Shown: positions 1 through 25,712, counted from the first letter of the stretch. The stretch: 32,000 nucleotides of DNA from Cupriavidus necator (GCF_016127575.1 NZ_CP066019.1:840001-872000), one strand, 5' to 3'. Notes: generated from the sequence alone by a model not told the origin. Program-made: numbers and translations.

Positions 1-101
1 TGGACATCAGGGGCTCCAGGTTGTCTACGCGAAAGATTGGAATGGTTGCTGCGTCGGCAGACCGCGGCGCCATCGCTGCGCCGCGGGTAGCGCGGATAAA
101 C

Positions 102-113
102 TCAGTATACTGA
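102..113. promoter_or_regulatory. Perfect 12-bp palindrome TCAGTATACTGA; sixth copy of the operator-like motif found in the 1778-2216 intergenic region
   Basis: Read directly from the sequence. It lies about 95 nt upstream of a possible minus-strand ATG at position 7 that runs off the left edge, and downstream of the MFS gene terminator. Confidence 0.5.
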
Positions 114-129
114 ATAGTTTGCCGGAAGA

Positions 130-151
130 AAGGGCGGAGAGATCCGCCCTT
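130..151 (-). terminator. Stem-loop downstream of the MFS transporter gene (AAGGGCGGA-GAGA-TCCGCCCTT)
   Basis: 9-bp perfect stem with a 4-nt loop, 22 nt after the stop at 173. On the minus strand it is followed by TCTTCC, a weak pyrimidine tract. Confidence 0.4.
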
Positions 152-172
152 CAGCTTCACCCGTAGTGCCGC

Positions 173-1777
173 TCAGGTGGCCAGATCGCGGCCGCGCGTC
201 TCCGGCACGAACAGCATGCCGATGACAAAGGCCAGACCGGCGATGATCACCGGGTACCACAGGCCGAAGTAGACGTCGCCGCTGGCCACGTTCATGGCCG
301 TGACCACGAAGGACAGCATGCCGCCGACCCAGCCCGCGCCGAGGTGGAAGGGCAGCGACAGCGAGGTGTAGCGCACCCGGGCCGGGAACAGCTCCACCAT
401 GAAGGCCGCCATCGGCCCGTACACCATGGCCAGGAACAGGATCGGGACCAGCAGCAGCACGAATACCATCGGCGTGTTGATCTTGGCGGGGTCCGCGCGC
501 TCGGGCCAGCCGGCCGCCACCAGCGCGCTCTTGATGGCGTCGCGGTCAAAGCCCTGCAGCGTGCGATCCGCGATGCGTACTTCAGCCTGCGCCGGATTGC
601 TGGCCGGCACGAAGGTGTAGCCCACGCCCAGGTCGGTCAGGTAGCCGCGGATCTTGTCGCAGGCGGACACCGGCTCGCCGAACAGGCGCGCCTTGCAGTC
701 GCCGGCCGTCACCTGCACGGCGCCCTGCTGCTGGAACTGTTCCAGCGCCGGATTGGCATAGTGCGTCAGGCCCTTGAACACCGGCTGGATGCACACCGCC
801 GCCAGCAGGCAGGCGGCCATCATGATGTACTTGCGGCCGATGCGGTCGGACAGCCAGCCGAACAGCAGGTAGCAGGGGGTGGCCACCACCAGCGCGATCC
901 CGATCAGCATGTGGACCGTTTCGAGCGGCACGTGCAGCGTCTTGTTGAGGAAGAACATCGAATAGAAGTGGCCGGTGCCGAAGATGGCGCCCAGGCCCGC
1001 CGCCACCACGAACAGCAGCAGCACCGACCTGAGGTTCTTCCAGTTGGTGAAACTCTCGCGGATCGGCGCCCTCGAGGTGGTGTTGGCAGCCTTCATCCGG
1101 GCAAAGACCGGCGATTCATGCAGCTTGCCGCGGATGTAGACCGAGATCACCAGCATCACAAGCGACACGATGAAGGGAATGCGCCAGCCCCAGTCACGGA
1201 ACTCGGCCTCGGTCAGGAAGGTCTTGAGCAGGTAGACGACCAGCAACGAGGACAGCAGGCCCAGCGTTGCCGTGGTCTGCAGCGAACTGGTGTACAGCCC
1301 GCGCTTGTGCACGGGGGAGTGCTCGGCCACGTAGGTGACCGCGCCGCCGACCTCGCCGCCCAGCGCCAGGCCTTGCAGCAGCCGCAGCAACACCAGCAGC
1401 ACGGTGGCGGTGATGCCGATCTGCTCATACGTGGGCAGCACGCCGACGCCGACGGTGGCAACACCCATCAGCAGGATGGTGACCAGGAAGGTGTACTTGC
1501 GCCCGATCAGGTCGCCCAGGCGGCCGAACAGCAGCGCGCCCACCGGCCGTATCAGGAAGCCTGCGCCGAAGGTGGCCAGGCTGGCCAGGAAGGCGGCAGT
1601 CTCATTGCCCTTGGGGAAGAACAGTGCGCCGAAATACACCGCCAGTGCGGCGTAGATGTAAAAGTCGTACCACTCCATCAGGGCGCCGAAGGAAGAGGCA
1701 AGGATGACCTTGCGCTCCTCGGCTGTCATGCCGGATGCGGGGGCGCGTGTCTCGCTGCGAGTCAGGCTGATCGTCAT
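173..1777 (-). CDS. MFS transporter, metabolite:H+ symporter (MHS; ProP/KgtP-like) family, with a ~100-aa insertion in the TM9-TM10 loop
   Basis: 534-aa ORF with 12 predicted hydrophobic segments. MHS-type motifs are GRLGDLIGRK (loop 2-3), SDRIGRK (loop 8-9) and ELFPARVRY after TM10. AAGGA lies upstream of the ATG. The gene is divergent from the catabolic operon. Confidence 0.85.
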   Translation of the reverse strand: MTISLTRSETRAPASGMTAEERKVILASSFGALMEWYDFYIYAALAVYFGALFFPKGNETAAFLASLATFGAGFLIRPVGALLFGRLGDLIGRKYTFLVTILLMGVATVGVGVLPTYEQIGITATVLLVLLRLLQGLALGGEVGGAVTYVAEHSPVHKRGLYTSSLQTTATLGLLSSLLVVYLLKTFLTEAEFRDWGWRIPFIVSLVMLVISVYIRGKLHESPVFARMKAANTTSRAPIRESFTNWKNLRSVLLLFVVAAGLGAIFGTGHFYSMFFLNKTLHVPLETVHMLIGIALVVATPCYLLFGWLSDRIGRKYIMMAACLLAAVCIQPVFKGLTHYANPALEQFQQQGAVQVTAGDCKARLFGEPVSACDKIRGYLTDLGVGYTFVPASNPAQAEVRIADRTLQGFDRDAIKSALVAAGWPERADPAKINTPMVFVLLLVPILFLAMVYGPMAAFMVELFPARVRYTSLSLPFHLGAGWVGGMLSFVVTAMNVASGDVYFGLWYPVIIAGLAFVIGMLFVPETRGRDLAT

Positions 1778-1901
1778 GGCGGGGGTCCTTTGGTCTAGCT
1801 ATTGTCTCTATATGTCTGCTCGTCCCGGCGGTGCCGGCGCCGCTGGCCAGGGCCTGTCGGTCCCTCGCGCAGTGCAGCGCCGCATCCTTCCGGTGCATCA
1901 G

Positions 1902-1933
1902 TCAGTATGCTGATGAGAAACGCAGTATGCTGA
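1902..1933. promoter_or_regulatory. Pair of operator-like palindromes: TCAGTATGCTGA (1902-1913) and GCAGTATGCTGA (1922-1933), 20 bp centre to centre
   Basis: Read directly; lies in the MFS/decarboxylase divergent intergenic region. Confidence 0.55.
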
Positions 1934-2004
1934 GCAAAATGCGGGCCAGTCCACAATGTGCCGGAATGCCCGAAATCGCCTATTTAAATGGCCTTTTAAT
2001 ATCG

Positions 2005-2038
2005 TCAGCATACTGAGCATCTGGGCTCAGTGTACTGA
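2005..2038. promoter_or_regulatory. Pair of operator-like palindromes: TCAGCATACTGA (2005-2016) and TCAGTGTACTGA (2027-2038), 22 bp centre to centre
   Basis: Read directly. 2005-2016 is the exact reverse complement of 1902-1913. An AT-rich stretch (TATTTAAATGGCCTTTTAATAT) sits immediately upstream. Confidence 0.55.
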
Positions 2039-2083
2039 GCACCTATGGTCATCGTTATAGGTGTTAACCCTCCGCGCCGTTTC

Positions 2084-2112
2084 TAGACTTTTGGAAATTC
2101 GCTGACTAGAAT
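2084..2112 (+). promoter_or_regulatory. Candidate sigma70-type promoter of the catabolic operon (TAGACT-17 nt-TAGAAT)
   Basis: Hexamers were read by eye with a 17-nt spacer. The predicted start near 2119 would put the 2123-2134 palindrome at about +4 to +15. No experimental support. Confidence 0.3.
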
Positions 2113-2122
2113 CCGAAACTAA

Positions 2123-2134
2123 TCAGTGTACTGA
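2123..2134. promoter_or_regulatory. Operator-like palindrome TCAGTGTACTGA (extended form ATCAGTGTACTGAT), 83 nt upstream of the decarboxylase ATG
   Basis: Read directly; identical to the 2027-2038 copy. Confidence 0.55.
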
Positions 2135-2216
2135 TCAATTGCATCGGTGCACGCCGCATGCCATGCAGCACACGCCCGCAGCGAAGCGATTTCACCAATC
2201 AGGAGCCCCCACCAGC

Positions 2217-3179
2217 ATGACCAAAGTGAAGAAGATCGCCCTCGAAGAGCATTTCATGACGCCGGGATTTCAGGCCTATTCCAAGGCGTTCACGCAGCAT
2301 ATTGATCCGGCGGTGTTTGCCGAGCTGGGCCGCCGCCTCGCCGATTTCGACGAGGACCGCCTTGCCGAGATGGACCGCGCCGGCATCGACATCACGGTGC
2401 TGTCGCAGACGGGTCCGGGCGTGCAGGGCGAGCGCGATGCCGGCCTCGCCGTGGCGCGGGCGCGCGAGAGCAATGACTTCCTGGCCGCGCAGATCGCGCG
2501 CCACCCCACGCGCTTTGCCGGCTTTGCCGCGCTGCCCATGCACGACCCGGAACAGGCCGCGCGCGAGCTGGAACGCGCCGTGCGCGAGCTTGGCTTCAAG
2601 GGCTCGCTGGTGAACGGCCATACCCACGGGCGCTACTACGACGACCCGGCATACGATGCTTTCTGGGAGCGCATGCAGGCGCTGGACGTGCCCATGTACC
2701 TGCACCCGACCGACGCGCTGGTTCAGCCGCAGGTCCTGGCGGGCCACCCCGAGCTGACCGGCGCGGCGTGGGGCTGGGGCGTCGAGACCGCATCGCATGC
2801 GCTGCGGCTGCTGTTCGGCGGCGTGTTCGACCGCTTCCCGCGCCTGAAGCTCATCCTCGGCCATATGGGCGAGGGCCTGCCGTACCAGCGCTGGCGCTTC
2901 GACAGCCGCTTTGCGGTCTATTCGCACGGCGTCCGGCTGGAGCGCTCACCTTCGGAATACATCGGCACCAATATCGTCATCACCACTTCGGGGGTGTGTT
3001 CGCACGGTGCGCTGGCCGGTGCCATTGCCGAGCTCGGCGCTGAGGCCGTGATGTTCTCGGTCGACTATCCCTACGAATCCACCGAAGTCGCGGCGAAGTT
3101 CATCGAGGACGCGCCGCTCGACGACACCATGCGCGCGCTGGTCTGCCACGGCAACGCGCAACGCCTGCTCAAGCTGTAA
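2217..3179 (+). CDS. Amidohydrolase-2 (ACMSD superfamily) non-oxidative decarboxylase, gamma-resorcylate/2,3-dihydroxybenzoate decarboxylase-like; candidate 3,6-dihydroxypicolinate decarboxylase (PicC-like)
   Basis: The start was moved from 2139 to the ATG at 2217 (MTKVKKIALEEHF), which is preceded by AGGAG at 2201-2205. Motifs IALEEHF, FAALP, LHP and ILGHMGEGLPY match the ortho-hydroxybenzoate decarboxylase group as I recall it. It is the first gene of the 2,5-dihydroxypyridine operon. Confidence 0.8.
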   Translation: MTKVKKIALEEHFMTPGFQAYSKAFTQHIDPAVFAELGRRLADFDEDRLAEMDRAGIDITVLSQTGPGVQGERDAGLAVARARESNDFLAAQIARHPTRFAGFAALPMHDPEQAARELERAVRELGFKGSLVNGHTHGRYYDDPAYDAFWERMQALDVPMYLHPTDALVQPQVLAGHPELTGAAWGWGVETASHALRLLFGGVFDRFPRLKLILGHMGEGLPYQRWRFDSRFAVYSHGVRLERSPSEYIGTNIVITTSGVCSHGALAGAIAELGAEAVMFSVDYPYESTEVAAKFIEDAPLDDTMRALVCHGNAQRLLKL

Positions 3180-3200
3180 CCGTACAACCCGAGGACCCTC

Positions 3201-3953
3201 ATGCAAAAAGTCTTTCGCATCGGCCAGATCGTTCCCAGCTCGAACACGACCATGGAAACCGAGATTCCCGCGATGCTGCTGGCGCGCCAGCAGATCCGTC
3301 CGGAGCGCTTCACCTTCCACTCCAGCCGCATGCGCATGAAGAAGGTGGTCAAGGAAGAGCTGGCCGCCATGGATGCCGAATCCGACCGCTGCGCGGTGGA
3401 ACTTAGCGACGCCCGCGTCGACGTGCTCGGCTACGCCTGCCTGGTCGCCATCATGGCCATGGGCCACGGCTATCACCGCAAGTCGGAGCAGCGCCTGAAG
3501 GTCCACACCATCGAGAATGGCGGCGACGCGCCGGTGATCACCAGCGCCGGTGCGCTGGTGGATGCGCTGCGCGTGATCGGCGCGCGCCGCATCGCCGTGG
3601 TCGCGCCATACTTGAAGCCGTTGACCGAGCTTGTGGTGGATTACATCCGCAACGAAGGCTATGAGGTGGTGGACTACCGTGCGCTGGAGATTCCGGACAA
3701 CCTTGAGGTCGGCCGCCACGATCCGGCGCGGCTGCCGGGCATCGTGTCGCAGATGAACCTGGCGGATGTCGATGCCATCGTGCTGTCGGCCTGCGTGCAG
3801 ATGCCGTCGCTGCCGGCAGTGGCAAAGGTAGAGGCGATGACGGGTAAGCCGGTCATCACCGCGGCCATTGCCACGACCTACGCCATGCTCAAGGCGCTGG
3901 ACCTGGAGCCGGTCGTGCCGGGCGCCGGCGCGCTGCTGTCGGGCGCCTACTGA
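3201..3953 (+). CDS. maiA: Maleate cis-trans isomerase (Asp/Glu racemase superfamily; NicE/PicG/MaiA)
   Basis: 250 aa. N-terminus is RIGQIVPSSNTTMETE. The two catalytic-type Cys contexts are GYACLVAIM and VLSACVQMPS. Sits 21 nt after the upstream gene. Confidence 0.85.
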   Translation: MQKVFRIGQIVPSSNTTMETEIPAMLLARQQIRPERFTFHSSRMRMKKVVKEELAAMDAESDRCAVELSDARVDVLGYACLVAIMAMGHGYHRKSEQRLKVHTIENGGDAPVITSAGALVDALRVIGARRIAVVAPYLKPLTELVVDYIRNEGYEVVDYRALEIPDNLEVGRHDPARLPGIVSQMNLADVDAIVLSACVQMPSLPAVAKVEAMTGKPVITAAIATTYAMLKALDLEPVVPGAGALLSGAY

Positions 3954-3962
3954 GGGCTTGCC

Positions 3963-4790
3963 ATGACCACCTTCCTTTATGGCGGGCATGTCCATGCCAA
4001 CGGCATTCGCCAGCACTTCCTGCGCTATGGTGGAAACGACGGTGAACGCGCCGCGCGCGATCCCGTGATCATCGTGCCGGGCATCACCAGCCCGGCAATC
4101 ACCTGGGGCTTCGTCGGCGAGCGCTTTGGCGCCAGCTTCGATACCTATGTGCTGGATGTGCGCGGGCGTGGCCTGTCGTCGGCCGAGGCCGGGATGGACT
4201 ACAGCCTCGACGCCCAGGCCCGCGACGTGGTGGCCTTTGCCGAGGCACTTGGCCTGCGCCGCCACAGCGTGGTTGGCCATTCGATGGGCGCGCGCATCGG
4301 CGTGCGCGCCGCGGCGGGCCGGCCTGGCGGCCTGGCCAGACTGGTGCTGGTCGACCCGCCGGTGTCGGGGCCCGGGCGCCGCGCGTATCCTGCGCAACTG
4401 CCGTGGTATGTGGATTCCATCCGCCTGTCGCGCCAGGGCACCGACGTGGAAGGCATGCGCCGCTTCTGCCCGACCTGGACCGACGAGCAGCTGCGCCTGC
4501 GCGCCGAATGGCTGCATACCTGCAACGAAGACGCCGTGGTGCGCAGCTTTGAGGATTTCCATCGCGACGACATCCATGCGGATCTGCCCCGGGTCAAGGT
4601 GCCGACGCTGCTGATGACCGCCGGGCGTGGCGACGTGGTGCGCGCTGAAGACGTGGCGGAGATCCGCACGCTGCTGCCGGGGGTGCTGGTCAGCCACGTT
4701 GCCGGGGCCGGCCACATGATCCCGTGGGATGACGAAGCGGGCTTTTACGCGGCGTTTGGGGATTTCCTCGGCGCGCCGCTGACGCAATGA
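3963..4790 (+). CDS. nicD: Alpha/beta-hydrolase, N-formylmaleamate deformylase-like (NicD/PicE)
   Basis: 275 aa with nucleophile elbow GHSMGA and a GAGHMIP histidine region. The function is assigned mainly from its position between the maleate isomerase and the 2,5-DHP dioxygenase. Confidence 0.7.
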   Translation: MTTFLYGGHVHANGIRQHFLRYGGNDGERAARDPVIIVPGITSPAITWGFVGERFGASFDTYVLDVRGRGLSSAEAGMDYSLDAQARDVVAFAEALGLRRHSVVGHSMGARIGVRAAAGRPGGLARLVLVDPPVSGPGRRAYPAQLPWYVDSIRLSRQGTDVEGMRRFCPTWTDEQLRLRAEWLHTCNEDAVVRSFEDFHRDDIHADLPRVKVPTLLMTAGRGDVVRAEDVAEIRTLLPGVLVSHVAGAGHMIPWDDEAGFYAAFGDFLGAPLTQ

Positions 4791-4806
4791 CAAGCAAGGA
4801 GGCGAC

Positions 4807-5862
4807 ATGCCGGTAAGTGACCACCAGATGATCGAGGCCTGGCGCAAGGTGCTGAAGCTGTCGCGGCTGGAGCCGGGGCAGACCGTCACCATCCTGACCA
4901 GCGCCGCGACCCACCCGCAGACGCTCTCCACCGCGCTGATCGCCACGCAGGCGATGGGTGCCATCGTCAACCGGCTCGACCTGCCGCCCGTCAACGGCGA
5001 AAAGGCGCTGAGCCGCGACGCGCTGGCCTACCTGGGCACGACCCCGCTCACGGGCAACCGGGCCGCGATTGCCGCGCTCAGGGAAAGCGACCTGGTGCTG
5101 GACCTGATGACGCTGCTGTTCTCCCCCGAACAGCACGACATCCTGAAGGGCGGCACCAAAATCCTGCTGGCCGCCGAGCCGCCCGAGGTGCTGACGCGCC
5201 TGGTGCCTTGCGAGGCCGACCGCGAGCGCGTCAAGGCCGCCTCCGAGCGGCTGGCCCGCGCCAAGGAGATGCATGTGGTGTCGCCGGCCGGCACCGACCT
5301 GCGCTGCCCGCTGGGCGAGTTCCCGGCCATCAGCGAGTATGGCTTTGTCGACGAGCCCGGGCGCTGGGACCACTGGCCCAGCGGCTTCGCGCTGACCTGG
5401 CCCAACGAGGGCGCTGCCAATGGCACCATCGTGCTGGAGCGCGGCGACATCCTGCTGCCGCAGAAGACCTACGTCACCGAGCCGGTCATGCTGACGGTGG
5501 AGGGCGGCTTTGCCACGCGCATCGAAGGCGGCCTGCACGCCGAACTGCTGAGCGAGTACATGGCCTCCTTCAACGACCCGCAGGCCTATGCCATCTCGCA
5601 TATCGGCTGGGGGCTGCAGCCGCGCGCGCACTGGTCCACGCTGGGGCTGTACGATCGCGAGGCCACCATCGGCATGGACGCGCGCGCGTTCGAGGGCAAC
5701 TTCCTGTTCTCGCTCGGCCCCAATAACGAAGCCGGCGGCAGCCGCACCACGGCCTGCCATATCGATATTCCCGTGCGCAACTGCACCGTGCGCCTGGACG
5801 GCGTGGATGTGGTGAGCCGCGGCAAGGTCATGGACGGGTTCCGCTACCCGGAGGAGAAGTAG
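4807..5862 (+). CDS. nicX: 2,5-dihydroxypyridine 5,6-dioxygenase (NicX/PicD)
   Basis: 351 aa. Long collinear resemblance to P. putida NicX as I remember it: VLKLSRL, LLAAEPPEVL, DEPGRWDHWPSGF, ISHIGWGLQPRA, ARAFEGNFLFS and CHIDIP (metal ligands). Confidence 0.9.
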   Translation: MPVSDHQMIEAWRKVLKLSRLEPGQTVTILTSAATHPQTLSTALIATQAMGAIVNRLDLPPVNGEKALSRDALAYLGTTPLTGNRAAIAALRESDLVLDLMTLLFSPEQHDILKGGTKILLAAEPPEVLTRLVPCEADRERVKAASERLARAKEMHVVSPAGTDLRCPLGEFPAISEYGFVDEPGRWDHWPSGFALTWPNEGAANGTIVLERGDILLPQKTYVTEPVMLTVEGGFATRIEGGLHAELLSEYMASFNDPQAYAISHIGWGLQPRAHWSTLGLYDREATIGMDARAFEGNFLFSLGPNNEAGGSRTTACHIDIPVRNCTVRLDGVDVVSRGKVMDGFRYPEEK

Positions 5863-5864
5863 CC

Positions 5865-6491
5865 ATGCACAAGGAGATCGGCGCGTACCAGCGCCAGGGC
5901 TTCGGCAACGACCTGGAACTGGCGGGCCCGTTCGGGCTGCTGCTGGTCGATTTCGTCAACGGCTTTGCCGACCCGGAGGTGTTCGGCGGCGGCAATATCC
6001 GCGAGGCCATCGCCAACACCGTGCCGCTGCTGGCCGTGGCACGGCGCGAAGGCTGGGCGATTGCGCACAGCCGCATCGTCTTTGCGGACGATGGTTCGGA
6101 CCACAACATCTTTTCCATGAAGGTGCCGAACATGCTGTCGCTGAAGGAGCGCGAACGCAACAGCGCCATCGTCGAAGAACTGGCGCCGCGGGTGGGCGAG
6201 CTGGTGGTGCGCAAGACCGTGCCGTCGGCGTTCTTCGGTACGTCGCTGGCCGCCTGGCTGACGCAGCGCGGCGTGCGCACGCTGGTGGTGGCCGGCGCGG
6301 TGACCAGCGGCTGCGTGCGCGCCAGCGTGGTGGACGCCATGCAGTACGGCTTGCGGCCGCTGGTGCTGTCGGATTGCGTCGGCGACCGCGCGCTTGGACC
6401 GCACCAGGCCAACCTGTTCGACATGGAGCAGAAATATGCGACGGTCACCACGCGCGCGGAAGGGCTGGCGGCCATCGGGGTGCGCGAATGA
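5865..6491 (+). CDS. nicF: Maleamate amidohydrolase (isochorismatase family; NicF/PicF)
   Basis: 208 aa. Isochorismatase D-K-C triad contexts are LLLVDFVNGF, VVRKTVPSAFFGT and VAGAVTSGCVRAS. Starts 2 nt after the nicX stop. Confidence 0.8.
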   Translation: MHKEIGAYQRQGFGNDLELAGPFGLLLVDFVNGFADPEVFGGGNIREAIANTVPLLAVARREGWAIAHSRIVFADDGSDHNIFSMKVPNMLSLKERERNSAIVEELAPRVGELVVRKTVPSAFFGTSLAAWLTQRGVRTLVVAGAVTSGCVRASVVDAMQYGLRPLVLSDCVGDRALGPHQANLFDMEQKYATVTTRAEGLAAIGVRE

Positions 6492-6524
6492 GCGCTTGCA
6501 TGAATCATCGGGACGGATAAAACA

Positions 6525-8921
6525 ATGACATCGTCGATGGAACCGGATCATTCGGAAGGAGGGTGCGGCCAGGGCGTGGGAGCCCGGGTGGCGCGCAAGG
6601 AAGACGCCAGGCACCTGCACGGCAAGGGCCGCTTTGTCGCGGACATCGCCATGCCGGACCTGCAGGAGGTGGCCTTCCTGCGCAGCCCCGTGGCGCATGC
6701 CAGGCTGTTGTCCGTGACCAAGCCCGCGCGCCACGCGCAAGCGGTGATCGTGCGCGAGGACATGGCGGCGGCGCGGGACATCGTCGCGGATTCGGCGTTC
6801 CCGTCCTACCAGCCGTCGGCTCAGGCGCCGCTGGCCAGCGGCAAGGTGCGCTTTGTCGGCGAGCCCGTTGCCATGGCCTTTGCCCCCACGCGCGCCGAAG
6901 CCGAGGACATCGCCGAGCAGGTGGTGGCCGAGTTCGACGAGCTGCCCGCGCTGACCGACGTGGCGCAGGCCCGCCAGCTCGCTGGCGAGGTGCGCGTGCA
7001 CGAACACTGGCGCGATAACACCTTCCTGACGCTGAATATCGACAAGAACTTCGAGGCGCGCCAGCGCGAGGCCTCCGTCGTCGTTCACCGCAAGGTCAAC
7101 CTGGCGCGCCAGTGCATGGTGCCGATGGAGGGCAAGGCGGTGCTGGCCTACTGGGACCACCAGTTCGACCAGCTGGTGGTGTACAGCGCCACCCAGGTGC
7201 CGCATATGATCCGGACCATCCTGAGCCATTGCCTGGACCTGGACCAGGCGCGCGTGCGCGTGATCTCGCCGGACGTTGGCGGCGCCTTTGGCTACAAATG
7301 CGTGCTGCAGCAGGAAGAGCTCTGTATCGCCTGGCTGGCGCTGACCTACAAGCGGCCGTTCCGCTTTATCGAGGATCGGCGCGAGCACCTGACCGCCGGC
7401 GCCAACTCGCGCGAGCATCACTACGAGCTTACCGCCTATGCCGACAAGCGCGGCCGCCTGCTGGCGCTGGACGCGAACATTGCCATCGACGGCGGTGCCT
7501 ATTCGGTCTGGCCATTCACCATCGGGCTGGAGCCGGGGCAGGCGATCGGCAACCTGCCCGGTCCCTATGCCTTCGACGGATACCGCTGCGAGACTACCTG
7601 CGTGGCCACCAACAAGCCGGGTTTCGTGCCGTATCGCGGTGTGGCCCGGACCGGCGTCTGTTTCGCCATGGAGCTGATGATCGACGCGATCGCGCGCGAG
7701 GTGGGACGCGAGCCGTGGGAAGTGCGCGTTGAAAACCTGGTGCCGCCGCAGTCCATGCCTTACGTCAACGTGACCAACAAGCACTTCGACGGCGGCGACT
7801 ACCCGGCCAGCGTGCGCCAGGCGATGGAGATGATCGACCTGCCCGCGATCCGCGCGCGGCAGCAGGCGGGTCCGCAGGGCAGCCGCTATGTCGGCGTGGG
7901 CTTTGGCACCTACACCGAGCAGTCGGCGCACGGCACTTCCGTGTTCGCGGCCTGGGGCACGCCGGTGATCCCCGGCTTCGACTCGGCGACGGTGCGCATC
8001 ACGCCGGACGGCGGGCTGGAGGTGCGCGTCGGCGTGCACTCGCACGGGCAGGGCATGGAGACTACCTTCGCGCAGATTGCCCACGAGATCCTGGGCATCG
8101 ACATCGGACGGATCAAGCTGGTGCACGGCGATACCGGACTCACGCCGTTCTCCACCGGTACCTATGCCTCGCGCTCGCTGGTGATGTCGGGCGGCGCGGT
8201 GTCGCGGGCGTGCAAGGCGCTGCTGCCGCGGCTGCAGAAGATTGGCGCGCATATGCTGGGGCAGCGGGTGGAGGCGGTAACGTTTGCAGCCGGCGCGGTT
8301 CGTGCGGGCGATGCCGACGCCATCGACATCGGCCGTATTGCCGACGCCTGGTACATCAATCCCCACCTGCTGCCGCCCGATGTGGATGCGCAAGGGCTGG
8401 AGGTCACCATGGGCTTCAAGCCCGCGGTCGACACCGGCAGCTTCACCTACGCCACGCATGCGGTCGCGGTGGAAGTCGACACCGATTCCGGCCATGTCGA
8501 GATCCTGGACTACGTGGTGGTGGAGGACTGCGGCACCATGATCAATCCGATGGTGGTCGAGGGCCAGACCTATGGCGGCGTGGCACAGGGCATCGGCACC
8601 GCGATGTTCGAAGAGATGCGCTATGACGGCAACGGGCAGCCGCTGGCTTCCACGCTGGCGGACTACATGCTGCCCGGGCCGACCGAGATTCCGTCGATCC
8701 GCATCCATCATTTCGAGACGCCGTCGCCGCATACGGAATTCGGCGCCAAGGGCATGGGCGAGGGCGGTGCCATCGCACCGCCGGCGGCGATCTTCAATGC
8801 GGTGAACGACGCCTTGCGCGGCTTCGGCGTCGAACTTCAGGAGACGCCGCTGACCCCGAGAAAGATCCTTGAAGCGCTGGATGCGGCAGTGGCCGGCGCA
8901 CAGAGCAAGAAGGCAGCCTGA
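6525..8921 (+). CDS. Molybdopterin-binding large subunit of a xanthine dehydrogenase/CoxL-family hydroxylase (N-heterocycle hydroxylase)
   Basis: 798 aa. Motifs seen are RKEDARHLHGKGRFVAD, GGAFGYK and a C-terminal GAKGMGEGGAIAPPAAI (catalytic Glu region). There is no CxxCH haem motif. The start could alternatively be the ATG at 6537. Confidence 0.85.
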   Translation: MTSSMEPDHSEGGCGQGVGARVARKEDARHLHGKGRFVADIAMPDLQEVAFLRSPVAHARLLSVTKPARHAQAVIVREDMAAARDIVADSAFPSYQPSAQAPLASGKVRFVGEPVAMAFAPTRAEAEDIAEQVVAEFDELPALTDVAQARQLAGEVRVHEHWRDNTFLTLNIDKNFEARQREASVVVHRKVNLARQCMVPMEGKAVLAYWDHQFDQLVVYSATQVPHMIRTILSHCLDLDQARVRVISPDVGGAFGYKCVLQQEELCIAWLALTYKRPFRFIEDRREHLTAGANSREHHYELTAYADKRGRLLALDANIAIDGGAYSVWPFTIGLEPGQAIGNLPGPYAFDGYRCETTCVATNKPGFVPYRGVARTGVCFAMELMIDAIAREVGREPWEVRVENLVPPQSMPYVNVTNKHFDGGDYPASVRQAMEMIDLPAIRARQQAGPQGSRYVGVGFGTYTEQSAHGTSVFAAWGTPVIPGFDSATVRITPDGGLEVRVGVHSHGQGMETTFAQIAHEILGIDIGRIKLVHGDTGLTPFSTGTYASRSLVMSGGAVSRACKALLPRLQKIGAHMLGQRVEAVTFAAGAVRAGDADAIDIGRIADAWYINPHLLPPDVDAQGLEVTMGFKPAVDTGSFTYATHAVAVEVDTDSGHVEILDYVVVEDCGTMINPMVVEGQTYGGVAQGIGTAMFEEMRYDGNGQPLASTLADYMLPGPTEIPSIRIHHFETPSPHTEFGAKGMGEGGAIAPPAAIFNAVNDALRGFGVELQETPLTPRKILEALDAAVAGAQSKKAA

Positions 8922-8924
8922 CCG

Positions 8925-9752
8925 ATGAAAGCCGTCGCCTTTTCCTATCATGCGCCCGGCTCGCTGCCGGACGCGCTGGCCCGCCTTGGCGCGGGCACCG
9001 ACGTGGCCAAGACCATGGGCGGAGGCCAGTCGCTCGGCCCGATGCTGAACCTGCGGCTGACCCGTCCTGACACGGTGGTCGATGTGTCGGGGCTGGCCGA
9101 ACTGCGGCAAGTCGCGTCCACCCCCGATGGCATCCGCATCGGCGCCTGCGTGACCCATGCGCAGATCGAGGACGGCGTGTTCGCGCCGCTGCAGGGCACC
9201 ATGCTGCAGGCCGTGGCGGGCGGCATTGCCTACCGCGCGATCCGCAACCGCGGCACCGTTGGCGGCAGCCTGGCCCATGCGGACCCGGCCGCGGACTGGG
9301 TCGTGGTGATGACCGCGCTGGGTGCGCGCATCGAGATTGCATCAGGCACCGGCACGCGCGAGGTGCCCATGGAAGCCTTCATGATCGGCGCCTACACCAC
9401 GGTGCTGGCCGATGGCGAGCTGATCGCCGCCGTGCGCGTGCCGCACGCCACCGCGCACAGCCGCTGGGGCTACCAGAAGCTGTGCCGCAAGACCGGCGAG
9501 TTTGCCGAAGCCAGCTGCGCCGCGTACTTCGATGCCGGCTGCCGCTTCGCACGCATCGTGCTCGGCGCGCTGGACGGACCGCCGGTGGTGCTGCCCGGCC
9601 TCACGCGCGCGGTCGCCGCGCAAGGCGCCGCGGCGCTCACCGCCGGTGCCGTGGACGAAGCGGTGGCGCAGGCCGCGCCCGGCAAGGACGCCATCGACCG
9701 CAAGCTTTACCGTACCGTCGTGATGCGCTGCGTCACGCAAATGCTGAACTGA
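8925..9752 (+). CDS. FAD-binding medium subunit (CoxM/XdhB-like) of the Mo hydroxylase
   Basis: 275 aa with a GGGQSLGPMLNLRL FAD-binding motif. Starts 3 nt after the large-subunit stop. Confidence 0.85.
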   Translation: MKAVAFSYHAPGSLPDALARLGAGTDVAKTMGGGQSLGPMLNLRLTRPDTVVDVSGLAELRQVASTPDGIRIGACVTHAQIEDGVFAPLQGTMLQAVAGGIAYRAIRNRGTVGGSLAHADPAADWVVVMTALGARIEIASGTGTREVPMEAFMIGAYTTVLADGELIAAVRVPHATAHSRWGYQKLCRKTGEFAEASCAAYFDAGCRFARIVLGALDGPPVVLPGLTRAVAAQGAAALTAGAVDEAVAQAAPGKDAIDRKLYRTVVMRCVTQMLN

Positions 9753-9761
9753 GGAGCGCCC

Positions 9762-10931
9762 GTGCAGACCATCGAATTCAGTGTCAACGGCCGCCGGGTT
9801 TCCGGCGCGTGCGCGGACCGGACGCACCTGGGCGACTTCCTGCGCGACACGCACCGGCTGACCGGCACCCACCTCGGCTGCGAGCACGGCGTGTGCGGCG
9901 CCTGCACCGTGCTGCTCGACGACAAGCCGGTGCGTTCGTGCATCACCTTCGCGGCTGCCTGCCAGGGCGCCGACATCGTCACCGTCGAAGGCTACCAGGA
10001 CGATGCCGTGATGGCCGGCCTGCGCGCGGCGTTCAACCAGCACCACGCGCTGCAGTGCGGCTTCTGCACGCCGGGCATGCTGGCGACCGCGCGCGACATC
10101 GTGCTGCGCCTGCCCGACGCCGACGACGCCACCATCCGTCACGAGCTGTCGGGCAACCTGTGTCGCTGCACCGGCTATATGGGAATCGTCGCCGCCATCC
10201 GCTCGGTGCTGGACGCACGCCGCGCAACAGCCGGCGTGATTGCGCGGCACGCCGCGGGCGCGGCGCCGGCCGAAGCGCCGTTCACCGGTTTTGCCGTTGC
10301 GGACGAAGCGCTCGGCACGCTGCCTCACCTGGCCGCGGGCACCGGCGCCGAGGCGGAACGGTCAGCCGACCGCAAGGGCTGGTCGCGCATCGAAGGCGGC
10401 TTCACCGTCCCCTATACGCTCGACGCGGTATGGGCCTTCATGGCCGACCTGCCGGCCGTGGCAGGCTGCCTGCCGGGTGCGGTGCTCACTGAAATGGAGG
10501 GGGAGAAGGTCAAGGGCCATATCGCCATCAAGTTCGGCCCGATGTCCGCCAGGTTCGAAGGCGCCGCGCGCCTGCAGCGCGACGACGCGAACAAGCGCGG
10601 CGTGCTGAAGGGGGCGGGGCAGGACTCGCTCAGCAATTCCAAGGCCGCGGGCGACATCGCCTACCAGCTGAAGGCGCTTGCCGCGCACGAGACCGAGGTT
10701 GCGGTCGACCTGCAGTATTCGCTGCAGGGGCCGCTGGCGCAGTTCTCGCGGTCGGGGCTGGTGCGCGATTTCGTGCGGCGCATGATTGCGGATTTCGGCA
10801 AGTCGGTGGCGCGCCGGATGGACCCGACGCTGAGCGATGCCGAACGCAACCAGGCGGTACGCCTCAATCCCGCGGCGATGTTCTTCGGCGTGCTGTGGGA
10901 GCGGGTCAAACGGTGGTTCGGCGCCCGCTGA
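9762..10931 (+). CDS. [2Fe-2S] small subunit (CoxS-like) fused to a C-terminal CoxG-like SRPBCC domain
   Basis: GTG start preceded by GAGGAG. The N-terminal ~160 aa carry GCEHGVCGACTV and CGFCTPGM...CRCTGY cluster motifs. An Ala-rich linker follows, then a CoxG-type domain (TVPYTLDAVWAFMADL...KFGPMSARFEG...LQGPLAQFSRSGLVRDF) and an amphipathic tail AAMFFGVLWERVKRWF. Confidence 0.8.
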   Translation: MQTIEFSVNGRRVSGACADRTHLGDFLRDTHRLTGTHLGCEHGVCGACTVLLDDKPVRSCITFAAACQGADIVTVEGYQDDAVMAGLRAAFNQHHALQCGFCTPGMLATARDIVLRLPDADDATIRHELSGNLCRCTGYMGIVAAIRSVLDARRATAGVIARHAAGAAPAEAPFTGFAVADEALGTLPHLAAGTGAEAERSADRKGWSRIEGGFTVPYTLDAVWAFMADLPAVAGCLPGAVLTEMEGEKVKGHIAIKFGPMSARFEGAARLQRDDANKRGVLKGAGQDSLSNSKAAGDIAYQLKALAAHETEVAVDLQYSLQGPLAQFSRSGLVRDFVRRMIADFGKSVARRMDPTLSDAERNQAVRLNPAAMFFGVLWERVKRWFGAR

Positions 10932-10966
10932 ACCCGCCCTCCGGGCTGTCGCAACCCTTGCCCGCG

Positions 10967-11563
10967 TCAGCCCGGATGCACTACAACCAGTAGTGCGGTG
11001 GCAGTGGTCTTGCCGCCATTGGAGATCGCATGTGCGACATCGGCCGCATAGCGCGCGGTCTCGCCGTGCCTCAGCTTCTTTTCATCGGCACCCGCGCGCA
11101 CTGTCATCGATCCGCTCAGCACAGACAGGTGTTCCTGGGTGCCGGCCTCGTGTGGCTCGGAGGCCAGCACGCCGCCGGCCTGGATGGTCAGCTCATACCA
11201 CTCGAAGCGCCCGGCCAGGTCGATCGGGCCCAGGATGCGCAGGTCGCAGCGGGTATCAGGGCTTTTCAGCGACGGGATCGCGTGCGGCTGGACCACGGTG
11301 ATGCCGCCGGCGGGGCGCTCAGCGGCGCCTCCGGCGAGGAAGTCCGTCAGGTTCACCCCAAGCGCATTGGCCAGGCGCCACAGCACCGCCACGGTGGGGT
11401 TGGCCAGGTTGCGTTCGATCTGCGACAGCATCGACTTGGAAACCCCGGCACGGCGTGACAGTTCATCGAGCGACAGCCGTTGCTGCTGGCGCAGCGCCTG
11501 CAGCGCCATGCCGACGGCGGGCGGGCCATCGGCCTGCGGGGTCTGGGCGAGGGCTTGCGTCAT
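10967..11563 (-). CDS. XRE-family HTH plus cupin-domain transcriptional regulator
   Basis: 198 aa with HTH_3 motif [28 protein letters not shown] and a C-terminal cupin-like beta region. Divergent from kbl. No clear SD, so the start is uncertain (an alternative ATG lies at 11509). Confidence 0.75.
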
Positions 11564-11568
11564 GGATT

Positions 11569-11630
11569 AATGTTCGTTATATTGCGCAAAATGTTCGATA
11601 TACAGAACGTGTTCGATTTATCGATCGAAT
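11569..11630. promoter_or_regulatory. AT-rich divergent promoter/operator region with three TGTTCGNT repeats and the inverted repeat TTCGAT-N6-ATCGAA
   Basis: TGTTCG occurs at 11571, 11592 and 11610. GAAC-GT-GTTC lies at 11605-11614. TTCGAT (11612-11617) pairs with ATCGAA (11624-11629). The region lies between the XRE regulator and kbl. Confidence 0.4.
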
Positions 11631-11667
11631 CCTAGCATATCCCTCGCACACCAACGGGAGCCAAGCC

Positions 11668-12867
11668 ATGTCGAATGCCGAGGCATTCTATGCATCCATC
11701 CGTACCGAACTCGAAAGCATCCGCGCGGCGGGGCTGTTCAAGAACGAGCGCGTGATCGCCACGCCGCAGGGTGCGCGGGTGCGCACCACCGACGGCCGCG
11801 AGGTCATCAACCTGTGCGCCAACAACTACCTTGGCTTGTCGTCGCACCCGCAGGTGATCGAGGCCGCGCATGAAGCGCTGCGCACGCATGGCTTCGGGCT
11901 GAGCTCGGTGCGCTTTATCTGCGGCACGCAAGACCTGCACAAGACGCTGGAGGCGCGGCTGTCGGCCTTCCTCGGCACCGAGGACACCATCCTCTATGGC
12001 TCGGCCTTCGATGCCAATGGCGGTTTGTTCGAAACGCTGCTGGGCGCGGAAGACGCGGTCATCAGCGATGCGCTCAACCATGCCTCGATCATCGACGGCG
12101 TCCGCCTGTCCAAGGCGCGCCGCTACCGCTACCAGCACAACGACATGGACGACCTGCGCGTGCAACTGGAGCAGGCGCGGGCCGACGGCGCGCGCTACAC
12201 GCTGGTGTTTTCCGACGGCGTGTTCTCGATGGACGGCACCGTGGCGCGGCTCGACGAGATGCGCGCGATCTGCGACGAGTACGGCGCGCTGCTGGGCATA
12301 GATGAATGCCATGCCACCGGTTTCATGGGCCAGCGCGGGCGCGGCACGCATGAGGCGCGCGGCGTGTTCGGCAAGATCGACATCATTACCGGCACGCTGG
12401 GCAAGGCGCTGGGTGGCGCCTCCGGCGGCTTCACCAGCGCGCGCAAGGAAGTGGTGGCACTGCTGCGCCAGCGTTCGCGGCCGTATTTGTTCTCCAACAC
12501 CGTGGCGCCGGCCATCGTGGGCGCGTCGATCGCGGTGCTCGATATCCTGGAAGCCAGCACCGAGCTGCGCGACCGGCTGGAGGGCAATACCAGGTTCTTC
12601 CGCGCGGGACTGGACCGGTTGGGCTTCGACGTCAAGGCGGGCGACCACCCGATCATCCCGATCATGGTCTACGACGCCGACAAGGCGCAGCAACTGGCGC
12701 AGCGCCTGCTGGAGCTGGGCGTGTACGTGGTCGGCTTCTTCTACCCGGTGGTACCCAAGGGCCAGGCGCGCATCCGCGTGCAGATGAGCGCGCTGCATGA
12801 CGAGGCCGCGCTGCAGGCGGCGCTGGATGCCTTCGGCCAGGCTGGCCGTGAACTGGGGCTGATCTGA
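11668..12867 (+). CDS. kbl: 2-amino-3-ketobutyrate CoA ligase (glycine C-acetyltransferase)
   Basis: The start was trimmed to [12 protein letters not shown], which has GGGAG upstream, giving 399 aa. It shows class-II aminotransferase/Kbl features, including the SFSKALGG-type PLP Lys region ([13 protein letters not shown]). Confidence 0.9.
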
Positions 12868-13823
12868 TGGAAGCTGGCAAACCGAAGATCCTGATTGTCG
12901 GCGCCAACGGCCAGATCGGGTCTGAACTGGCACTGGCGCTGGCCGAGCGCTACGGGCGCACCAACGTGATCACCTCCGACGTGGTGCCCACCGGCCGCCA
13001 TGTGCATCTGACGCACGAGATGCTCAACGCCACCGACCGCGGCGAGCTGGCCACCGTGGTCGAGCGCCATGGCATCACCCAGGTCTACCTGCTGGCCGCC
13101 GCGCTGTCCGCCACCGGCGAAAAGGCGCCACAGTGGGCCTGGAACCTCAATATGACCAGCCTGCTCAATGTGCTGGAGCTGGCGCGGCAGACCGGGCTGG
13201 AGCGGGTGTTCTGGCCAAGCTCGATTGCAGCCTTCGGCCCGACCACGCCTGCCGGACAGACACCGCAGAAGACCGTGATGGAGCCCACCACGGTCTACGG
13301 CATCTCCAAGCAGGCGGGCGAGGGTTGGTGCCGCTGGTATCACGCCAACCACGGCGTGGATGTGCGCAGCGTGCGCTATCCGGGCCTGATCTCGCACAAG
13401 ACGCCACCCGGCGGCGGCACCACCGACTATGCGGTCGACATCTTCCATGCGGCGGTGACGGGCGAGCCCTACACCTGCTTCCTGAAGGAAGACGAAGCCC
13501 TGCCGATGATGTATATGCCCGATGCGATCCGCGCCACCATCGAACTGATGGAAGCCCCGGCGGACAAGCTGAGCGAGCGCGGCAGCTACAACATCGCCGG
13601 CATGAGCTTCACGCCCGCGCAGATCGCCGCGGCCATCCGCGAGCAGGTGCCGGGCTTCCAGATCCGCTATGAACCCGACTATCGCCAGGCGATTGCGCAG
13701 GGCTGGCCGGATTCGATCGATGATTCGGTCGCGCGCGCGGACTGGGGGTGGAAGGCCCAGTATGGACTGAAGGAGATGGTCGCGGACATGCTTGCCAACC
13801 TGAAGGCCACGCTGGCGGGCTGA
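12867..13823 (+). CDS. tdh: L-threonine 3-dehydrogenase, NAD-dependent epimerase/dehydratase (extended SDR) type
   Basis: 318 aa with N-terminal Rossmann motif ILIVGANGQIGSEL and YGISK catalytic Tyr/Lys. Its ATG overlaps the kbl TGA (TGATG). This SDR-type TDH next to kbl is the arrangement known from Cupriavidus necator. Confidence 0.85.
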   Translation: MEAGKPKILIVGANGQIGSELALALAERYGRTNVITSDVVPTGRHVHLTHEMLNATDRGELATVVERHGITQVYLLAAALSATGEKAPQWAWNLNMTSLLNVLELARQTGLERVFWPSSIAAFGPTTPAGQTPQKTVMEPTTVYGISKQAGEGWCRWYHANHGVDVRSVRYPGLISHKTPPGGGTTDYAVDIFHAAVTGEPYTCFLKEDEALPMMYMPDAIRATIELMEAPADKLSERGSYNIAGMSFTPAQIAAAIREQVPGFQIRYEPDYRQAIAQGWPDSIDDSVARADWGWKAQYGLKEMVADMLANLKATLAG

Positions 13824-13863
13824 AGCGCTATGGCCCCAACGGGAAGCGCGTGCGCGCAGTGGC

Positions 13864-16569: not shown

Positions 16570-16901
16570 TGCACTCTCCTGGGGGCGATGCCCGTCACCG
16601 CCACCCTGGCCCGTCTGTGGCAGACAAGATCATAAGTGCTGTATCGGGAATATTTTGGCGGGAGGGCATCAGGTCCGGGCGATTGTTCCACGGCCCTGAG
16701 GGTTGCGTCCTAGTTCGTTTGGACGATTCTGCCGGCTTGCCGAATTTCCTCCCTTCGATGGACGACAGCGGTGCCCGAGCCTCCTACATTGACCCGCACG
16801 CGCTCCCGGCAGCGGCCCGCAGAGGCTGGCCGGGTATGACACGGCAGGATGCCGGCACGGCACGAGGCCGGCTGCCGGAGACGAGACACAGGAGACAAGG
16901 T

Positions 16902-17906
16902 ATGCAGCAAGGCAGGCGCAGGGTTCTGCAGCAAATGGGTCTGGGCGTCGCGGGTGCGGCGCTGGCAGGGGTTGGGCTGGGTGCGCGCGCGCAGGGTGGT
17001 GCGGGGGTGGATTTCCCGGCACGCACGGTGCGCATCGTGATGCCATACGCCGCGGGCGGGACCGGCGACGTGGTCGCGCGCATGGTCGCGGACGGCCTGG
17101 CCAAGGCATGGGGCAAGGCCGTGGTGGTGGACAACCGGCCGGGTGCCGGCGGCATGATCGGCGCGGACATGGTGGCCAAGGCAGAGCCGGACGGCTATAC
17201 GCTGTTGTTCGCGCTGACCGGCCTGGTCCAGGCGCCGCTGCTGTACAGCAAGGCAAACTACAACGCAGTGCGTGACTTCGCGCCGATCTCTGAGCTGGCG
17301 ACCTCCAACCTGGCGCTGGTGGTGCAGCCCGACGTGCCGGCGGCCAACGTGAAGCAACTGATCGACTACATCCGCAAGCTGGGCAAGCCGCTGCCGTATG
17401 GCAGCTACGGGCTGGGTTCCAGCGGGCATCTGCAGATGGAGGTCTTCGGCCGCAACGCCAGGGTTGAACTGACCCACGTGCCCTACAAGGGCGAGGGCCC
17501 GCTGGTCAACGACCTGCTTGGCGGACAACTGCCCGCCGGCGTCGTGGCCGCGGTCACCGCGCGCACGCATGCGCGCGCCGGCAAGCTCAAGGTGGTCGCC
17601 GTGGCCGGGCAGTCGCGCTCGCCGCTGCTGCCGGAGGTGCCGACCTTCCAGGAGGCGGGCGTGCCCGGGCTGGAGCGCCAGGGCTGGCTGGGCCTGTTCG
17701 CGCCGGCGGCGACGCCGCGCGCCGTGGTCGACAAGGTGTCTGCCGACGTCAACCGCGTGCTGGCCAACCCCGAGCTGCACACACGGCTGGTCGATCTCGG
17801 CATCATCGTCAAGGGAAGCTCGCCCGCGGCCTTTGCCGATGTCGTGAAGGTGGAGCAGACCTACTGGGCTGAAGCGATCCGGGCGTCCAATATCCGCCTG
17901 GACTGA
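16902..17906 (+). CDS. Bug-family (TctC-like) tripartite tricarboxylate transporter substrate-binding protein
   Basis: The start was trimmed to MQQGRRRVLQQ (twin-arginine-like leader) with AGGAGA upstream, giving 334 aa. Typical Bug motifs are present: RIVMPYAAGGTGD, VVDNRPGAGG and VPYKG. Confidence 0.85.
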   Translation: MQQGRRRVLQQMGLGVAGAALAGVGLGARAQGGAGVDFPARTVRIVMPYAAGGTGDVVARMVADGLAKAWGKAVVVDNRPGAGGMIGADMVAKAEPDGYTLLFALTGLVQAPLLYSKANYNAVRDFAPISELATSNLALVVQPDVPAANVKQLIDYIRKLGKPLPYGSYGLGSSGHLQMEVFGRNARVELTHVPYKGEGPLVNDLLGGQLPAGVVAAVTARTHARAGKLKVVAVAGQSRSPLLPEVPTFQEAGVPGLERQGWLGLFAPAATPRAVVDKVSADVNRVLANPELHTRLVDLGIIVKGSSPAAFADVVKVEQTYWAEAIRASNIRLD

Positions 17907-17928
17907 TGCGGCCCCGGCAGGGCATGGC

Positions 17929-17965
17929 GGCAGGCAGGGCCGGCTGGTGCGGGCGCCTGCCTGCC
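17929..17965. terminator. Hairpin between convergent genes (GGCAGGCAGG-17 nt-CCTGCCTGCC)
   Basis: Perfect 10-bp stem between the Bug stop (17906) and the stop of the small minus-strand gene (17972). No clear U-tract on either strand. Confidence 0.4.
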
Positions 17966-17971
17966 GCGCGT

Positions 17972-18319
17972 TTACTGGTAGGTCACTACCACCACGTACG
18001 CGTCCGGCGTGCCGCGTTGCCCGGCACGGGCGGGCTCGACGTCCAGCCTTGCCACGCCGATGCGGGCTTGCCCGGTCATCCGGGCAGGCGACAACGGCAA
18101 CGGCGCCGAGACGATCTGCCCCGACGGCTGCTGGCAGCTCGCCTGCAACTGTCCGGCGGACGGACGGAAGCCGCAGGACGGGTACGAGATTCCCCCAAGG
18201 AACGTAATGGTGCCGGTATGCGCGGCAGCGGTGCCGATACCCGCGGCTGCCAGAACGCCCACTGCGACCAGCCGGCCGGCAACGCCGGCGGCCTTCCTGC
18301 TGAGTTCGACCGTTTTCAT
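17972..18319 (-). CDS. Small secreted protein with type-1-pilin-like N- and C-terminal motifs (hypothetical)
   Basis: 115 aa with a signal peptide ending AAA|HTG. The mature N-terminus is GTITFLGGISYPSC and the C-terminus is YVVVVTYQ. Third codon positions are mostly G/C, and GAGAGAGGGG precedes the ATG. Confidence 0.55.
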   Translation of the reverse strand: MKTVELSRKAAGVAGRLVAVGVLAAAGIGTAAAHTGTITFLGGISYPSCGFRPSAGQLQASCQQPSGQIVSAPLPLSPARMTGQARIGVARLDVEPARAGQRGTPDAYVVVVTYQ

Positions 18320-25468: not shown

Positions 25469-25627
25469 GGGGTCTCGATGGGAGCTGGCCGCCGTTCTGC
25501 GCGGCGTGTGCGGCGAGTCTCCCACAGACGCGTGCCGTTGCGTACAGGGTTTCCCCGAGGCCGGCAGCGTGCCGGCGATCCATCGGTTTTGGCGCACCTC
25601 GCCGTCAAAGATGCGATTGGACCGGGG

Positions 25628-25645: not shown

Positions 25646-25712
25646 TTCAGCCACCAGGAAACGCGGCTCAAGCCGCCGCCCAGGCTACCCAGAAAAGAAG
25701 TGAGGAGACCCC

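Follow-up and report, generated by a model that had tools for sequence, protein, structure and literature searches.

A predicted picolinic acid (pic) catabolic cluster divided between two divergent arms on chromosome 2 of Cupriavidus necator H16

We analyzed a 32 kb stretch of chromosome 2 of Cupriavidus necator H16 (hereafter, the window), for which open reading frames (ORFs) were listed and their products searched against Pfam. Eight coding sequences (CDSs) on the + strand at positions 2217-10931 very probably constitute the right-hand arm of a picolinic acid (pic) catabolic cluster, with the pathway assigned from orthologs in Alcaligenes faecalis JQ135 and Bordetella bronchiseptica RB50. 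In the proposed pathway, PicA1A2A3 (6525-10931), a dehydrogenase with molybdenum (Mo), flavin adenine dinucleotide (FAD), and iron-sulfur (FeS)-SRPBCC subunits, would hydroxylate picolinate at C6, and the Rieske system PicB1-4, encoded on a divergent arm 4.8-8.2 kb to the left of the window, would hydroxylate 6-hydroxypicolinate (6HPA) at C3. The predicted Zn-dependent Amidohydro_2 enzyme PicC (2217-3179) would then convert 3,6-dihydroxypicolinate (3,6DHPA) to 2,5-dihydroxypyridine (2,5-DHP), which PicD, PicE, PicF, and PicG would carry through N-formylmaleamate, maleamate, and maleate to fumarate. The far end of the divergent arm carries the gene for PicR, a putative MarR-type repressor.

A pic cluster was defined in A. 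faecalis JQ135 by Qiu et al. (2019; bioRxiv 10.1101/530550). In that strain, PicA1A2A3 is a Mo dehydrogenase that converts picolinate to 6HPA, PicB1-4 is a four-component Rieske monooxygenase that converts 6HPA to 3,6DHPA, PicC decarboxylates 3,6DHPA to 2,5-DHP, and PicD/PicE/PicF/PicG take 2,5-DHP to fumarate (bioRxiv 10.1101/530550). Supplemental Data 1 of the same paper lists C. necator H16 (NC_008314) as carrying a type VIII pic cluster, with the tags H16_RS22805/10/15 for picA1-3, RS22745/40/35/30 for picB1-4, RS22780 for picC, RS22795 for picD, RS22790 for picE, RS22800 for picF, RS22785 for picG, and RS22725 for picR. When the column order of these tags is taken from Table S2 of that paper, tag order and spacing agree with the genes observed here: the operon reads C-G-E-D-F-A1-A2-A3, picB1 and picC are separated by six transporter genes, and picR lies past picB4. 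The observed gene order reproduces the listed H16 tags and the locus is therefore already catalogued; the enzymology has likewise been worked out in two other genera. We are highly confident that the eight-gene operon is one arm, the right-hand one, of a known pic cluster with the type VIII layout. A preliminary description of this DNA, made from the window alone, had regarded the layout as unlike the nic (nicotinate) and pic clusters known to its author; this view does not hold, as C-G-E-D-F is the common order and H16 is listed by Qiu et al. (2019) as type VIII. What is added here is only small, namely the recurrence of the operator across genera and the assignment of the Cupriavidus transporter genes to a putative PicR regulon.

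Results

The eight CDSs are tightly packed, with intergenic gaps of 21, 9, 16, 2, 33, 3, and 9 nucleotides (nt), which matches the preliminary description (same-strand CDSs, 2-33 nt apart), and GenBank gene calls on the same DNA agree with the eight ORFs in starts and lengths. The first gene, picC (2217..3179; H16_RS22780), encodes an Amidohydro_2 protein of 320 amino acids (aa) that is predicted to be a 3,6DHPA decarboxylase. It is followed by picG (3201..3953; H16_RS22785), a putative maleate cis-trans isomerase with an Amdase domain, the Asp/Glu-racemase-like fold of maleate isomerases; picE (3963..4790; H16_RS22790), a putative N-formylmaleamate deformylase of the alpha/beta hydrolase type; picD (4807..5862; H16_RS22795), a putative 2,5-dihydroxypyridine 5,6-dioxygenase of the NicX family; and picF (5865..6491; H16_RS22800), a putative maleamate amidohydrolase with an isochorismatase fold. 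The last three genes encode the subunits of the predicted picolinate dehydrogenase (6-hydroxylase): picA1 (6525..8921; H16_RS22805), the molybdopterin-binding large subunit (Ald_Xan_dh_C and MoCoBD_1/2); picA2 (8925..9752; H16_RS22810), the FAD-binding subunit (FAD_binding_5); and picA3 (9762..10931; H16_RS22815), a 389-aa 2x[2Fe-2S] subunit fused to a CoxG/SRPBCC domain (Fer2, Fer2_2, and COXG).

This domain content agrees with the set of functions that had been proposed from the window (decarboxylase, isomerase, deformylase, 2,5-DHP dioxygenase, amidase, and Mo, FAD, and FeS subunits). The Pfam scan of the picD ORF gave no match, and its assignment to NicX (PF26233) came from precomputed Pfam annotation; an NCBIfam equivalog model was not found for PicC or PicD. 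In searches of the Protein Data Bank (PDB), PicD matched NicX (7cn3; E-value 7e-124), PicG matched maleate cis-trans isomerase (4fq7; 3e-113), PicF matched 3ot4/3uao (6e-91), and PicE matched an entry named 'Deformylase' (4l0c; 1e-85). These matches to solved structures bear out the earlier suggestion that the four genes specify the maleamate pathway. Megablast of the operon against plasmids recovered no record covering at least 80% of the query; the matches were partial, at 75-80% identity, and were in Caballeronia, Burkholderia, Azospirillum, and others.

The evidence for the identity of the decarboxylase comes from comparison with characterized orthologs. A B. bronchiseptica locus was retrieved with the published forward primer for picC(RB50) (PMC10142695); the gene concerned is 963 bp long, and its 3' end matches the reverse primer as well. 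PicC(RB50) (BB0271) has been characterized biochemically and converts 3,6DHPA to 2,5-DHP (PMC10142695). H16 PicC aligns with the B. bronchiseptica protein without gaps over 320/320 aa (74.7% identity), and the four genes that follow picC in B. bronchiseptica are in the same order as in H16 (identities of 85% for PicG, 72% for PicE, 82% for PicD, and 70% for PicF). Residues E10, E11, H12, H163, H216, and D283 of JQ135 PicC are kept at the same positions in H16 PicC, and H135, H177, and H194 are likewise at identical positions. Identities of 73-80% to proteins that pic clusters encode in other genera place H16 PicC in the PicC clade. These observations support the earlier proposal that a PicC-type decarboxylase, rather than NicC, would supply 2,5-DHP.

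The preliminary description had also placed this protein in the ortho-hydroxy-acid branch of Amidohydro_2, and the structures nearest to PicC in the PDB agree with that placement: gamma-RSD was closest (3s4t, E-value 1.6e-81; 2dvt, 1e-72), LigW (4icm) scored 2e-72, and 2,3-DHBD and salicylate decarboxylase were also near (6m53 is in this group), with ACMSD (~1e-22) and IDCase (~1e-15) far behind. The same description had treated LigW and IDCase alike as unrelated enzymes. IDCase is indeed distant, but LigW is near and, because 4icm scores 2e-72, the ortho-hydroxy-acid branch includes LigW. JQ135 PicC is <45% identical to other reported Amidohydro_2 decarboxylases and is specific for 3,6DHPA, with no conversion of 2,3- or 2,6-dihydroxybenzoate or of 3-hydroxypicolinate (3-HPA).

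The assignment of the Mo enzyme as a PicA-type C6 hydroxylase, also proposed earlier, is likewise favored by the comparisons. The three-component Mo/FAD/FeS architecture is present (Pfam), and H16 PicA1 is 76% identical to its counterpart from Bordetella bronchialis (locus L010) and 68% identical to that from Pusillimonas (locus L011), where picA1 is partial in both loci. Its nearest solved structure is the large subunit of quinoline 2-oxidoreductase (1t3q). In PicA3, the CoxG/SRPBCC domain occupies residues ~212-351. The retrieved Variovorax locus ends before picA3, and the fusion was instead checked by tblastn against plasmids, where it aligns unbroken over its whole length in replicons of Caballeronia, Burkholderia, and Variovorax. 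The PicA3 fusion is called as one gene in Cupriavidus basilensis, and is not peculiar to H16.

The components predicted to hydroxylate C3 were identified in the DNA flanking the window. Positions 1-13179 of the window correspond, with 1 mismatch, to AM260480.1 (C. necator H16 chromosome 2), where window position p equals record position 914569 + p; the picC sequence is present exactly on this record. Ten genes are transcribed away from the operon and encode an MFS protein, five ABC transporter components, and four Rieske oxygenase components. The first of these genes encodes a 534-aa MFS transporter (173..1777, - strand; Pfam Sugar_tr/MFS_1). The next, an ABC substrate-binding-protein gene (Peripla_BP_6, - strand), starts at window position 7 and leaves the window at its left edge. 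Together with two ATPases and two permeases, this binding protein forms a five-gene ABC transporter of the branched-chain-amino-acid type (left of the window, 11771-16477 of the H16 flank, L007). The same succession of MFS gene, five ABC genes, and picB1-4 is seen in C. basilensis.

The picB1-4 block follows at window-equivalent positions -4782 to -8232 (16560-20010 of L007) and thus begins 4.8 kb left of window position 1 and 7.0 kb from the picC start. It comprises a 101-aa Rieske ferredoxin (PicB1), a 426-aa ferredoxin reductase (PicB2), and the 429-aa large (PicB3) and 171-aa small (PicB4) subunits of a Rieske oxygenase. Identities to the B. bronchialis and Pusillimonas proteins, respectively, are 66% and 59% for PicB1, 52% and 52% for PicB2, 81% and 79% for PicB3, and 66% and 69% for PicB4. 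Beyond picB4, at the far end of the arm and convergent with it, is a 157-aa MarR gene (picR), the product of which shares 63% identity with that of the MarR gene adjoining picC in B. bronchialis and 61% with its Pusillimonas counterpart. Collectively, picD, picE, picF, and picG are all present in the H16 cluster along with PicA, PicB, PicC, and PicR.

These genes overturn the earlier claim of a single-hydroxylase layout, in which picolinate would require a C3 hydroxylase encoded elsewhere, since orthologs of picB1-4 are in the same cluster, on the divergent arm, and share an operator motif with picC. The cluster looked like a single-hydroxylase system because the window edge cuts the divergent arm and picB lies outside. 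More generally, the edge of a sequence window can mislead; here, a cut cluster resembled a novel compact variant.

The picC/MFS intergenic region (439 nt) contains five copies of a 12-bp palindrome-like sequence, TCAG-YRTR-CTGA. Nearest the MFS gene are TCAGTATGCTGA (1902-1913) and GCAGTATGCTGA (1922-1933; one mismatch), spaced 20 nt apart, and a second operator-like pair consists of TCAGCATACTGA (2005-2016) and TCAGTGTACTGA (2027-2038), spaced 22 nt apart. The fifth copy, again TCAGTGTACTGA (2123..2134), is located just 3' of the -10 hexamer of a sigma-70-like promoter upstream of picC (TAGACT-17-TAGAAT; 2084..2112, + strand), which is a consensus match only. A sixth copy, TCAGTATACTGA (102..113), lies in the gap that separates the MFS gene from the gene for the ABC substrate-binding protein. 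Allowing up to 1 mismatch, TCAGYRTRCTGA has 12 strand matches in the 32 kb window, compared to 0.81 expected, and 12/12 are in pic intergenic DNA. Outside the window, two more copies, 22 nt apart, are found in the 82-nt gap before H16 picB1 (16502 and 16524 of L007; 16502-16535).

The motif is shared across genera. In B. bronchiseptica, B. bronchialis, Pusillimonas, and Variovorax, TCAG-YRYR-CTGA, often paired at a spacing of 20-22 nt, is found 5' of picC and in the vicinity of picB1/picT, and C. basilensis carries it at the same three regions as H16, with one copy in the picF-picA1 gap. Site coordinates in the comparison loci are 6714-6904 (L009); 9818-9947 and 17888-18173 (L010); and 3148-3181, 8039-8071, 9765-9892, and 14381 (L013). 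Across six loci, from two Cupriavidus species, two Bordetella species, Pusillimonas, and Variovorax, the motif is almost confined to pic intergenic DNA; among exact matches the exceptions number just two, located within an ABC permease gene of C. basilensis and within an unrelated gene of the Variovorax locus.

PicR is said to bind TCAG-N4-CTNN and to have 6HPA as its ligand, as reportedly described by Xu and colleagues in 2022. From their cross-genus footprint, we take the sites identified here to be probable copies of that PicR site; a literature text search for the motif gave nothing useful. Judging from the distribution of TCAG-N4-CTGA operators, PicR probably controls three promoter regions, namely those of picC/MFS, the ABC genes, and picB1. 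Because the operator is shared in front of both arms, we infer that one MarR repressor would act on them and that picB and picC-picA3 would form a single regulon. The operators before the transporter genes and picB1 thus predict one repressor over all three promoter regions in Cupriavidus.

Discussion

Gene content, orthology, conserved catalytic residues, and a conserved operator motif are established here for the pic cluster of C. necator H16. The presence of a PicC ortholog and of PicA and picB1-4 in the cluster, together with the lack of a NicC-like gene among the ORFs scanned in and around the locus, upholds the earlier conclusion that the operon is pic-type and not nic-type. From these sequence comparisons we infer every enzymatic activity in H16, the role of the MFS and ABC proteins in uptake, and repression by PicR. 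As H16 is an industrial chassis and the names given to these genes by NCBI and JGI are generic (e.g., “amidohydrolase family protein” and “2,3-dihydroxybenzoate decarboxylase”), labels for picC through picA3 are useful even though they are not new.

Several points weigh against the assignment to picolinate catabolism. Function rests on orthology at ~50-85% identity, and our literature search turned up no experimental work in C. necator H16 itself that addressed picolinate utilization, induction, or the activity of the enzymes. Identities to the founding proteins are known only via the related type VIII strain JMP134, which has 44-77% identity to the JQ135 proteins (Table S2, bioRxiv 10.1101/530550). 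H172 of JQ135 PicC is a Q in H16, although the H172A mutant of the JQ135 enzyme loses only 10-50% of its activity. Lastly, the transporters differ, with MFS and ABC systems in H16 versus a TRAP/DctP gene in the Bordetella, Pusillimonas, and Variovorax clusters.

The difference in transporters bears on the first alternative, in which the locus would serve as a broader hydroxypicolinate funnel that admits picolinate as well as 6HPA, 3,6DHPA, and possibly 3-HPA or related pyridine carboxylates through the MFS and ABC systems. In the type VIII layout, the putative PicR regulon takes in two transporter systems, compared to a DctP/TRAP gene in other genera, and mutants of JQ135 grow on the intermediates 6HPA and 3,6DHPA (bioRxiv 10.1101/530550). 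However, JQ135 PicC is specific for 3,6DHPA, and such a funnel would extend the picolinate pathway rather than replace it; we consider it very unlikely. A related conjecture, to which we assign a slim chance, is that the MFS and branched-chain-amino-acid-type ABC systems were recruited to the PicR regulon, providing different or wider uptake than in TRAP-linked clusters, and that PicA also accepts 3-HPA. If PicA did so, the cluster would admit 3-HPA without PicB, in addition to picolinate.

A second alternative follows the preliminary description, which had considered the operon complete for 3-HPA. Under this scenario, the locus would be a compact single-hydroxylase operon in which the Mo enzyme makes 3,6DHPA from 3-HPA, and picolinate would not be the physiological substrate. 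Only one hydroxylase is indeed encoded inside the window, and hydroxylation of 3-HPA at C6 followed by PicC would be chemically sufficient. Nevertheless, this argument was built on a missing C3 hydroxylase, and with picB1-4 orthologs in the same cluster behind the same operator motif, the single-hydroxylase premise fails. In addition, the Mo large subunit shares 68-76% identity with picA1 from clusters that have picB near picA, and the published list counts the locus among picolinate clusters (bioRxiv 10.1101/530550). The inactivity of JQ135 PicC on 3-HPA is consistent with either substrate. No observation now requires 3-HPA as a substrate, and we regard the 3-HPA scenario as most improbable.

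To the third alternative, a nic-type maleamate-pathway cluster with nicC just outside the window, we give next to no credence: the nic and nicotine pathways do have homologs of PicD (NicX), PicE (NicD), PicF (NicF), and PicG (maleate isomerase), but the first gene is a PicC ortholog with the catalytic residues of the characterized enzyme, the Mo/FAD/FeS hydroxylase has three subunits, one of them for FAD, where NicAB has two subunits and a cytochrome c domain, and no flavin monooxygenase is encoded within 10 kb upstream of the MFS start (~8 kb past the left edge) or in the 21 kb downstream in the window. The preliminary description had likewise reported no such ORF in the window, and this is borne out among the larger ORFs scanned with Pfam, where ORFs <150 aa beyond position 14000 were outside the scan. 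A check for nicC just outside the window gave no monooxygenase of the FAD_binding_3 type, either in the H16 DNA upstream (L007) or among the ORFs scanned within the window.

Outside the eight-gene operon, larger ORFs in the window encode, by Pfam, the MFS protein of the divergent arm, an XRE-cupin regulator, an aminotransferase, an epimerase, a MalT/LuxR protein, a TctC protein, and a 2-hydroxyacid dehydrogenase, as well as a DUF899 protein, a LysR protein, an Fe-alcohol dehydrogenase, a second MFS protein, an aldehyde dehydrogenase, and an acyl-CoA synthetase. The XRE-cupin gene (10967-11563, - strand; 198 aa with a helix-turn-helix domain) is convergent with picA3, 35 nt from the picA3 stop, and is present in C. 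necator H16 and PHE3-6. It was rejected as a regulator of the cluster and probably lies outside of it, because C. basilensis holds LysE and IclR genes at the same position. A 901-aa MalT-like STAND/LuxR regulator (13864-16569, - strand) is back to back with a TctC (Bug-family) ORF (16569-17906, + strand); the start of the latter is probably internal, because the domain begins only at residue 169 of the 445-aa ORF, which greatly exceeds it in length. Both genes are unrelated to the pic cluster. Lastly, positions 24602-31906 comprise a LysR gene followed, on the + strand, by genes for an Fe-alcohol dehydrogenase, an MFS protein, an aldehyde dehydrogenase, and an acetyl-CoA-synthetase-like enzyme, which look like a separate alcohol/aldehyde/acid utilization unit.

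Comparison with characterized systems places the individual parts of the H16 cluster in context. The gamma-resorcylate, 2,3-dihydroxybenzoate, and 5-carboxyvanillate decarboxylases are the closest solved structures to PicC, and the N-terminal EEH metal motif of gamma-RSD is the same in H16 PicC. The nic cluster of Pseudomonas putida KT2440 shares the lower maleamate pathway, both through the similarity of PicD to NicX and through homologs of the amidase, deformylase, and isomerase. The two systems differ in the architecture of the hydroxylase and in the origin of 2,5-DHP, which in H16 would come from a non-oxidative Amidohydro_2 decarboxylase and not from the flavoprotein NicC.

Among pic clusters, that of B. 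bronchiseptica RB50 has the same picC-picG-picE-picD-picF order as H16 and also carries TCAG-N4-CTGA sites upstream of picC. In the related locus of B. bronchialis, picB directly follows picF on the opposite strand and faces a DctP-type gene and then picA1, with no MFS/ABC block; in both the B. bronchialis and Pusillimonas clusters, picB is between picF and picA1, and the DctP transporter gene is between picB and picA1. Another layout variant is found in Variovorax, where picA is located on the other side, beyond a complete DctPQM TRAP transporter. In this Variovorax locus, a pirin-family gene (9215-9955 of L012) lies between picR and picC, and picF is followed by a gene for a 2OG-Fe(II) oxygenase-domain protein and then one for an unannotated 746-aa protein.

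The JQ135 cluster encodes the same set of enzymes as H16, namely PicA1-3, PicB1-4, and PicC-G, along with a MarR-type PicR (Qiu et al., 2019; bioRxiv 10.1101/530550 and 10.1101/457895), and differs in arrangement. In H16, picG is between picC and picE, as in most genera (bioRxiv 10.1101/530550), and picR is at the far end of the divergent arm. In addition, H16 picB is divergent and set apart from picA, behind the MFS gene and the five-gene ABC block, in keeping with the published observation that picA adjoins picB “except in the Cupriavidus strains” (bioRxiv 10.1101/530550).

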